In this document: one piece after another, positions 55,071 to 56,114 of the stretch
Position numbering within the stretch: position 1 is the stretch's first letter
Layout: each line of letters begins with the position of its first letter
From: Leucoraja ocellata
Taxonomy: Eukaryota
Reading direction: 5' to 3'
DNA: 64,000 bases
Assembly: GCA_036785375.1 (NCBI GenBank)
Contig: JAWMAR010000070.1
Coordinates: forward strand, 7,440,001-7,504,000
Program-made: the position numbers and the translations under genes
The notes under the pieces: generated by a model
Databases searched by the model: none
Seen by the model: only the letters and a program-made list of their open reading frames with translations
Told to the model about the DNA's origin: nothing

Positions 55071-55598
55071 TCCCTTTTACTTTTGTTCCTATTCTCAACA
55101 CCTGTGGACTCCATGATTTTCCACATGTTGTTCCGTCCCCGTGTGGTCATGGACAATGTTGGACACAGCTCATAGAAGCCGGCGATGTTGCCCGTAGTGA
55201 GCAAGAGTTGCACAAAGTTCACACCCAACTCAATGCTGGCGTACAAAGAATCACTCACACCGGCTGTCTTCAAGAGAGTTTATTTCCATTAATGATACAT
55301 TTACCGATGGAAGCACGATCTGTCCCATTGCACTACATTTGCCCCATATCCCCCTAAACCTTTCCCTGTACCAAGTGTGTATTAAATATTGTTACAATTC
55401 CCACCCCAGGTAAAAGATGTTTTGTGTTTACCCCTCTATTCCCCTCATGATGAATTAAGTGACTACAATATAGAATGCTGTTGTTGGCCTAAGTATGTGA
55501 AGTTTATAATGATGGATGTTATTGTGTGTTTGTGCTGTCCTGCCACTGCCTGTTGCTGCTGTCACATGGGGGGGCCTGTGCTGGGTCAGTGTGAGGTT

Positions 55599-56114
55599 TC
55601 ACTTCACTGTGAGATTGATAATTAGTCTACATTCCCCTTGGCCAGTGAACCAAGCGCAGGAATACATCCCAATATCAGTCTCTCGTAAACTCGTGATGGC
55701 CAACGAGGCATCCCGTGTCTCACCCACGTTTGTTTCTAGGAACGTCCATCGCCCGGTCCCCCCTGGATAATTGGCACCATTCCCTTCAGTAAACACGGCC
55801 AGTGTCCCGCTCCCTTTACTCCAGGTGACCACAAAATTCTTGGGTCCACCCTTCCCTGTGGGTACTTTACAGGGTAGCGTAGCAGAACCACCCTTGCGTG
55901 TCGATAAATCCGTGTATTTCATCTTGATCGCAGCTGGCCTAACACCGCATTCTGGAGTATCTTGTTTGTTGACTTGTCGAGGCTCCCGTGCGTTCCACCC
56001 GGGCAAGTTTGCTTCCTCTCCCCATTCTCTGGAGATCGGACCTGTTCCAGTTGCGGAGACTTGCCACACCATCTCCACAAGGACCATGAATCCTATCCAT
56101 CTCTGCAGTCCCAT
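55599..56114 (-). CDS. Secreted single Ig-V-domain pro-protein, subfamily B (171 aa)
   Basis: Leader identical in protein to the 12152 copy. V-set motifs intact, 4 Cys. Confidence 0.85.
   Translation of the reverse strand: MGLQRWIGFMVLVEMVWQVSATGTGPISREWGEEANLPGWNAREPRQVNKQDTPECGVRPAAIKMKYTDLSTRKGGSATLPCKVPTGKGGPKNFVVTWSKGSGTLAVFTEGNGANYPGGTGRWTFLETNVGETRDASLAITSLRETDIGMYSCAWFTGQGECRLIINLTVK

Follow-up and report, generated by a model that had tools for sequence, protein, structure and literature searches.

Secreted gut proteins with diversified germline V regions, the VCBPs, are found in amphioxus and Ciona and are linked to chitin biology. A VCBP consists of two V domains and a C-terminal chitin-binding domain. 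Conotoxin genes combine conserved flanks with a rapidly evolving mature region. Snake venom PLA2 genes have a conserved UTR, intron and signal region, and Ka equals or exceeds Ks in the mature region (PMC7285919, accessible sections). An old question about such toxin-like genes is whether introns and leaders appear conserved because the copies are young, or because repeated conversion resets them. In duplicated genes that undergo conversion, a selected region may form a divergence peak between flanking introns that stay alike (PMC3924837, accessible sections). Human red/green opsin exon 5 is such a case, as it diverges between introns that remain similar (Fawcett and Innan, PMC3924837, same sections). 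Among V-domain multigene families, SITR represents a soluble form encoded in the genome, and CD300, MDIR, SITR and pIgR share a hallmark WC[RK] in the C strand and a second Cys pair in C-C′ (PMC3031540, accessible sections).

The DNA analysed here, referred to as the window, is a 64,000 nt stretch of the skate Leucoraja ocellata (assembly GCA_036785375.1, contig JAWMAR010000070.1, termed C70, positions 7440001–7504000), and it contains nine copies of one gene. Copies are designated by a window coordinate of their open reading frame (ORF), and the 55599 copy serves as the reference. The features are as follows.

57425–57680, minus strand: shared promoter block of ∼200–250 bp, copy 55599, near-identical in the copies shown, with unrelated sequence farther upstream
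57476–57494, plus strand: CCAAT-N9-CCACG motif in the promoter, from a motif scan of the window
57424–57418, minus strand: TATA box
57319–57424, minus strand: TATA box and exon 1
56119–57318, minus strand: GT-AG intron of copy 55599, 1200 nt; the joined form is present in P0001–P0004 and P0006–P0010
55977–56114, minus strand: 46-codon leader, comprising a predicted signal peptide and a propeptide whose last residues, R-E-P-R, form a predicted convertase site
55599–55976, minus strand: mature single V-set Ig domain of 125 aa with four Cys, then stop; positively selected
55279–55598, minus strand: 3′ UTR up to the first AATAAA
12152–12667, minus strand: paralog, B type, the comparison copy of the first-pass annotation
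28969–29481, minus strand: paralog, B type
59484–59999, minus strand: paralog, B type
33093–33632, plus strand: paralog, A1 type
39614–40153, plus strand: paralog, A1 type
46129–46665, plus strand: paralog, A1 type
6113–6562, plus strand: paralog, likely pseudogene with a V-domain frameshift, 149 aa, without the F-strand Cys
51516–52000, plus strand: paralog, likely pseudogene with several frameshifts and stops, end approximate

The whole ORF lies in one exon, exon 2, in the two-exon genes of the family. The predicted GT-AG junction is the one at which exons 1 and 2 are joined in the RefSeq models and in the Logan protein P0009. We infer a spliced transcript behind P0009 because its 900-nt contig is too short for the ORF plus intron. 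In these models and in P0009, the reading frame is extended by 31 aa, starting from an upstream ATG in exon 1. This in-frame ATG, at 57407 on the minus strand of the window and present in every copy, is situated 17 nt past the first T of the TATA box and may lie before the main transcription start. Intron length is 541–587 nt in the 22 other copies measured, versus 1200 nt in copy 55599. The sequence CCAAT-N9-CCACG, which we take to be the ERSE-I consensus, occurs nine times in the window against 0.08 expected, one per gene, and is found in 59 of 59 copies; the promoters are homogenised, so that these sites are not independent and amount to one observation. When three raw RNA runs (tissues only coded; 5–6% of each read) were compared with the 59999 copy, they gave 0, 0 and ∼1 ORF read. 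In the one contig run searched with this copy, contigs continue unspliced into the intron.

A leader search of 614 kb around the window and 50 kb of C16 located 59 copies, 57 of them in the interval 6.99–7.52 Mb of C70 and two on C16. An ORF of at least 160 aa is present in 52 of the 59, termed intact here; their mature parts amount to 40 different coding sequences and 34 different proteins. The copy count may be inflated by haplotype redundancy, because much of it is supplied by recent blocks of 11–46 kb, mostly with ≥99% identity. A separate repeat of ∼100 kb (C70:7005580–7107506 versus 7321851–7423803, mostly 99.4% identity, offset 316 kb) represents either true segmental duplication or haplotype redundancy. 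Protein searches of the genome gave matches below E=1e-3 only on C70 and C16. Weak V-domain matches at C85:1736775, C535:24861, C2010:60585 and C72:196845 (E 0.003–0.009, 31–33% identity) could be distant relatives or generic V domains.

The promoter block has 63 candidate sites in the genome; the 40 that were scored all show 100% rounded identity and all lie inside the array. The promoter was considered as a dispersed repeat and this was rejected, as 63 candidates compare with 59 genes and all 40 scored are within the array. Orphan copies of the promoter and exon 1 are present at C70:7260747 and 7512164, where retrotransposon-like DNA interrupts the intron; the leader search detected no ORF exon with either. 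GH18 chitinase genes are interleaved with the array. They give 60 exon matches, most in C70 6.94–7.96 Mb and several inside the array, and thus form a large cluster that is in part co-duplicated within the Ig array. Translated exons of the catalytic region retain D-x-D-x-E in some GH18 copies and have D-x-D-x-Q or D-x-H-x-E in others; the copies with an altered motif are possible chitinase-like lectins. Exons of a BTG-family gene and a fibromodulin-like (SLRP-family) gene flank the array on one side. The chitinase neighbourhood is not taken as evidence of co-expression. Retroelement-like sequences, labelled by eye, are also found in the window: a 744-aa open frame similar to the reverse transcriptase ORF of LINEs (20072–22306, plus strand), a 422-aa gag-like open frame with no Pfam match (61864–63132, plus strand), and broken LTR-retrotransposon pol-like sequence directly 3′ of two B copies (9726–11549 and 53380–55116).

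At the protein level, the mature region is a V-set domain of the Ig superfamily. It has the B–F Cys pair, the C-strand Trp, D-x-G-x-Y-x-C and the C′ and C′′ strands; residues C36, W52, D101, Y105 and C107 are invariant, as are four Cys. Pfam V-set scores E=1.3e-9 for copy 55599, and PF07686 is above cut-off in all five family proteins scanned. The AlphaFold2 model of the mature domain has a V-set fold (pLDDT 84.8). Top Foldseek matches are the V domains of CAR, nectins, PVR, JAML and TIGIT (TM 0.67–0.72, 20–32% identity); CAR/nectin-type V domains also rank high when PDB sequences and Atlas features are searched, and the Atlas search returns generic V-set clusters. Foldseek scores are flat across many V-set proteins and single out no parent gene. 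Conservation of the additional Cys pair suggests an extra disulfide from the N-terminus to the G strand. All 52 intact copies have R-x-x-R within eight residues of the mature start. A second R-x-x-R is lost in ten copies, representing few lineages, and all ten keep the first; this retention is only suggestive. The N-terminus is hydrophobic and copy 55599 has no hydrophobic C-terminus; the 19-residue hydropathy maximum across the 52 copies is 1.69, which is borderline. The proteins are predicted to be secreted and convertase-cleaved; the ERSE-type motif in every promoter also speaks for secretion. Net charge depends on type, which suggests that the targets may differ: the six B types measured carry +5 to +12, the B-sister type carries +3, and the seven A-side types range from −6 to +4.

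A rearranging Ig/TCR V segment ends before J, has an RSS directly behind the F-strand Cys and obtains FGxG from J. RSS-based rearrangement was rejected, as the ORF continues through the G strand to the stop and FGxG/WGxG is present in 0 of 52 copies. Loose RSS-like matches occur in 15 of 52, all at or past the stop, and 14 of these have spacers of 22 or 24. A heptamer-12-nonamer-like match at 55611–55584 of the window (minus strand) is found at the end of copy 55599 only and is judged to be chance.

Full-length relatives consist of eight uncharacterized L. erinacea proteins, one from Rhinoraja longicauda and one Logan record; the database searches that were run gave none outside skates. In a profile search of 1.84 billion representatives, the best 150 matches were multi-Ig proteins and P0007. 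When rescored per domain, proteins outside the family reach at most 45.6 bits and family members 143–192. A weak search detected no longer skate form of the family and matched one sea-urchin multi-Ig protein. The copies nearest to the L. erinacea proteins have 1, 3, 10, 10, 12, 15, 21 and 22 mature differences, with leader differences of 0–4. By this sequence comparison, the paralog types had already formed when L. erinacea split off. One type has hardly changed between the two species (1 of 125 mature residues differs), therefore not all members are racing. The Rhinoraja leader shares I-A-R and A-R-V-P-R residues with the C16 copies, which would agree with flanks that resemble each other more within the array than they resemble their orthologs.

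The first-pass annotation had reported that two B copies have identical 46-aa prepro regions and differ at ∼36 of 125 residues of the mature part and at ∼2 of 150 UTR positions, and that two A copies have 13 amino-acid-changing and three silent codon differences. All of these counts were reproduced exactly. The ORFs 12667–12152 and 56114–55599, which both lie on the minus strand, have the same 46 leader codons without any nucleotide difference. They differ at 36 of the 125 mature residues and at 2 of 150 bases of 3′ UTR, and the 70 bases upstream of the ATG are identical. For ORFs 33093 and 39614 the figures of 13 and 3 refer to the whole ORF, and the leader contributes three of the 13 and one of the three. 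A 60-base sliding window shows 0–3 differences per bin from the promoter to codon 40, 6–10 per bin from nt 120 to 480, three in the stop-codon bin and 1–3 per bin beyond it (about 1–2%). Divergence climbs sharply at about codon 40, stays up to the stop and then falls back. Chance does not account for the contrast between leader and mature region. An assembly artefact is unlikely as well, because L. erinacea proteins from an independent assembly display near-identical leaders and very different V domains.

The two pairs do not by themselves demonstrate selection. NG86 ratios are 1.85 for the B pair (12152/55599) and 1.37 for the A pair (33093/39614), and dN>dS from raw counts is significant in neither (Fisher p=0.076 and 0.34), because there are ∼3.3 non-synonymous sites per synonymous site. 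The pairs were therefore rejected as stand-alone proof.

Evidence for selection comes from GY94 site models, run with own code, rescaled IQ-TREE M0 branch lengths, eight beta classes and NEB posteriors. Two sets were analysed: clade B, with 13 sequences and 125 codons including copies 12152 and 55599, and clade A1, with 19 sequences and 132 codons. Together they cover 32 of the 40 distinct sequences, the other eight being divergent single types. In clade B, M0 ω is 2.14, 2ΔL is 33.8 both for M1a versus M2a and for M8a versus M8 (p=6e-9 for the latter), and M8 places 45% of sites at ω 4.3. In clade A1, M0 ω is 2.52, M8 versus M8a gives 2ΔL 84.8 (p=3e-20), and M8 places 23% of sites at ω 11. A codon test of the kind that the annotation had proposed is significant in both clades. 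Recombination is detected by the PHI test in A1 (p=0.001) and is weak or marginal in B (p=0.05 and 0.22). With four segments placed on their own trees, p is 3e-6 (B) and 3e-14 (A1). With double and triple substitutions allowed, p is 9e-7 (B) and 4e-13 (A1), and the multi-hit terms improve the fit. Null data were simulated on four segment trees with no positive selection and analysed on one tree. The maximum 2ΔL was 2.3 in nine B runs and 11.6 in six A1 runs, none near the observed value, and M0 ω was 0.27–0.86 in 15 of 15 runs. One of the six A1 runs passed the nominal 5% cut-off, and the A1 p-values are therefore somewhat inflated. The mature domain is under positive selection in both clades. 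Introns, UTR and signal region are more conserved than mature coding sequence, in which ω exceeds 1.

The annotation had placed this selection on a binding surface. In A1, 12 of 15 sites with posterior >0.95 lie on one face, in the BC-C-C′-C′′ and F-FG-G segments (p=0.005, for a region picked after the sites were seen). In clade B, 10 of 19 selected sites are in the same segments (p=0.8), with no clustering on one face. Diversifying selection is thus supported in two clades, and the selected sites lie mostly on one face in A1 but not in B.

The flanks present a different history. Copies 12152 and 55599 differ at 5 of 49 mature fourfold sites versus 8 of 784 flank bases (p=0.0005). Averages over non-independent pairs within clades are 4.1% for fourfold sites, 1.1% for intron and 2.1% for UTR in B, and 2.7%, 1.2% and 1.6% in A1, so the within-clade fourfold excess is modest. 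Between A1 and B, promoter, exon 1 and intron diverge by only 0.8%, 0.3% and 1.3%, respectively, versus 29% at mature fourfold sites, 44% at second positions and 57% in the UTR. Mature dS therefore does not equal flank divergence, and the flanks do not behave as a neutral clock. The promoter and exon 1 are free to change, because divergences of 8% and 12%, respectively, separate the unlinked C16 copy from either clade. In the 5′ tree this copy forms the long branch, but in the mature tree, where the B side is set apart with 100% support, it groups with A types. Thus flanks are more alike than the coding divergence allows, and the 5′ and mature trees are discordant, as in the divergence peaks reported for converting duplicates (PMC3924837). 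The simplest reading of these trees would be that linked copies went on exchanging the 5′ block long after the mature domains had diverged, and gene conversion likely homogenises a cassette that extends from promoter to leader. Two intron classes (∼545 and ∼586 nt) cut across mature-domain clades, a distribution that may be read as a further sign of exchange. The 5′ block is ∼99% alike between clades whose mature domains are near-saturated, therefore flank identity overstates the youth of the copies. Copy 7087755 (29481 type) and copy 59999 differ at 0 of 52 fourfold sites and 16 of 124 second positions; conversion is therefore not needed for every pair, and simple acceleration contributes.

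Several other explanations bear on this divergence. If the copies were recent duplicates diversified by selection, with flanks at the neutral clock and no conversion, the significant site models and within-clade pairs such as 7087755/59999 would be accommodated. That model cannot yield a 1.3% intron beside 29% fourfold divergence between A1 and B, nor the shifted position of the C16 copy between trees, nor the raised fourfold divergence of the 12152/55599 pair, and it is improbable. The annotation offered the reverse as its alternative to selection: conversion of the flanks around old neutral divergence, recognizable by dN/dS above 1 at no site and by mature dS as elevated as dN. Part of this is borne out, since the 5′ block is homogenised and mature synonymous sites are raised above the flanks, and the two quoted pairs lack significance alone. 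A version without positive selection is nevertheless extremely improbable, with whole-domain ω at 2.1–2.5 against values below 1 in every recombination null run, and with a selection signal that survives partitioned trees and multi-hit models. Conversion and selection are not alternatives here; both act. A further possibility is local hypermutation targeted at the mature part of the exon, raising both dN and dS, an idea reportedly put forward for conotoxins. The sharp boundary at the cleavage site, the raised fourfold divergence and the better fit of multi-hit terms agree with it; ω well above 1 requires selection, one type is near-static between species and one pair has no fourfold differences, which leaves hypermutation very improbable.

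Regarding function, the profile of secretion, lineage restriction, tandem arrangement and positive selection is also that of reproductive proteins. Seminal, clasper-gland, sperm–egg or egg-jelly recognition proteins, shaped by the same mechanism under sexual conflict, would fit this profile, and the near absence of ORF reads in three RNA runs is consistent with a narrow tissue. The fold is like that of the V domains of adhesion proteins such as CAR and nectins. One assembly nevertheless encodes at least 34 different mature proteins, and old types have persisted across species, which fits a repertoire better than a single recognition pair; a reproductive role is considered a serious but rather unlikely reading. 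The toxin-like label of the annotation holds only for the evolutionary pattern: none of the searches run connected the protein with a family of toxins. That the genes encode true venom or defensive toxins is highly improbable: no toxin is present among the listed Pfam, PDB sequence, Foldseek or protein-search matches. To our knowledge, rajid skates have no venom gland, and no stingray protein was among the matches of the word-limited protein searches. In favour of a toxin are the cationic B types, and the prepro architecture and accelerated evolution, which resemble those of snake PLA2 genes (PMC7285919, accessible sections).

The preferred explanation combines positive selection on the mature domain with conversion of the 5′ cassette, and this evolutionary mechanism is considered highly probable. 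Conversion tracts would be tolerated where copies are interchangeable, i.e. in the promoter, exon 1, intron, leader and within-clade 3′ UTR, and purged or blocked where binding specificity would be erased. A divergence peak would result, with its start at the predicted cleavage site, and silent sites would be carried along. Partial exchanges within the V domain may add mosaic variants (PHI p=0.001 in A1). Conversion would standardise expression and processing, and selection would protect and diversify the V domain. Signal peptidase and a proprotein convertase are predicted to free a V domain stabilised by disulfides. With one TATA/ERSE promoter in common, the copies would all be expressed together in a professional secretory cell, most likely of the gut or skin mucosa. 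Binding to microbial or parasite surfaces is predicted to involve the front sheet and the FG loop. A function as mucosal or innate defence binders is given slightly better than even confidence; the targets of such a set would probably be fast-changing, such as microbes or parasites. Confidence in the whole account, i.e. selection on the mature domain, a converted cassette and a varied repertoire of secreted defence binders, is evenly balanced. A more specific version is tentative and possible rather than probable: the skate germline would encode a library of antibody-like binders, each secreted as a single domain and none produced by rearrangement. Conversion would copy one standardised cassette, from the ERSE/TATA promoter through exon 1 and intron to signal peptide and propeptide, over dozens of genes. 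Selection and shuffling of segments would diversify the V domains, and the set would be released together with gut chitinases as mucosal defence.

A skate-restricted, predicted secreted Ig family under very strong selection points to a molecular arms race in a cartilaginous fish. With regard to the old question of youth or resetting, the unlinked outgroup copy and the two old clades indicate a 5′ cassette that is homogenised while selection is real too; flank identity is therefore unusable as a neutral clock. Should the proteins be binders, nature would have supplied a small V-domain scaffold whose variable face is already mapped. Mechanisms of this kind are known. What appears undescribed is the family itself, together with its design of a prepro-protein with a single V domain and the homogenisation of a shared cassette over ∼50 genes: no description was found in the largely open-access literature searched, and the accessible sections of PMC6795676 do not mention the family. 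Six of the identifiers of the L. erinacea and R. longicauda relatives appear in no paper of the literature searched.

Those relatives, L. erinacea LOC129708937–42, 45 and 46 and Rhinoraja longicauda LOC144605155, belong to the same family and have the leader, the four-Cys V domain and the paralog types in common. They are uncharacterised, and eight Leucoraja models compare with 59 copies in L. ocellata. Skate MDIR, carp SITR, NITR, NILT and CD300/pIgR are likewise germline, non-rearranging V-domain multigene families. The array proteins differ from these families in having one domain, a propeptide and the whole ORF in one exon, and their extra Cys pair is at the N-terminus and G strand; the CD300-type WC[RK] motif is found in 0 of 52 array copies. 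CAR, nectins, PVR, JAML and TIGIT are the best fold matches, but they are membrane proteins. VCBPs are similar as secreted, diversified germline V-region proteins; identity with VCBP was rejected, as the skate ORF stops after a single V domain. The likeness to snake PLA2 and conotoxin genes consists of conserved flanks and an accelerated mature region. The skate family differs in its Ig V-set scaffold, which has no toxin homology, and in that homogenisation of the 5′ block can be demonstrated against an unlinked outgroup copy. In comparison with the opsins, which have two fixed specificities, the skate array has dozens of copies, a peak that spans a whole domain and ongoing ω>1.
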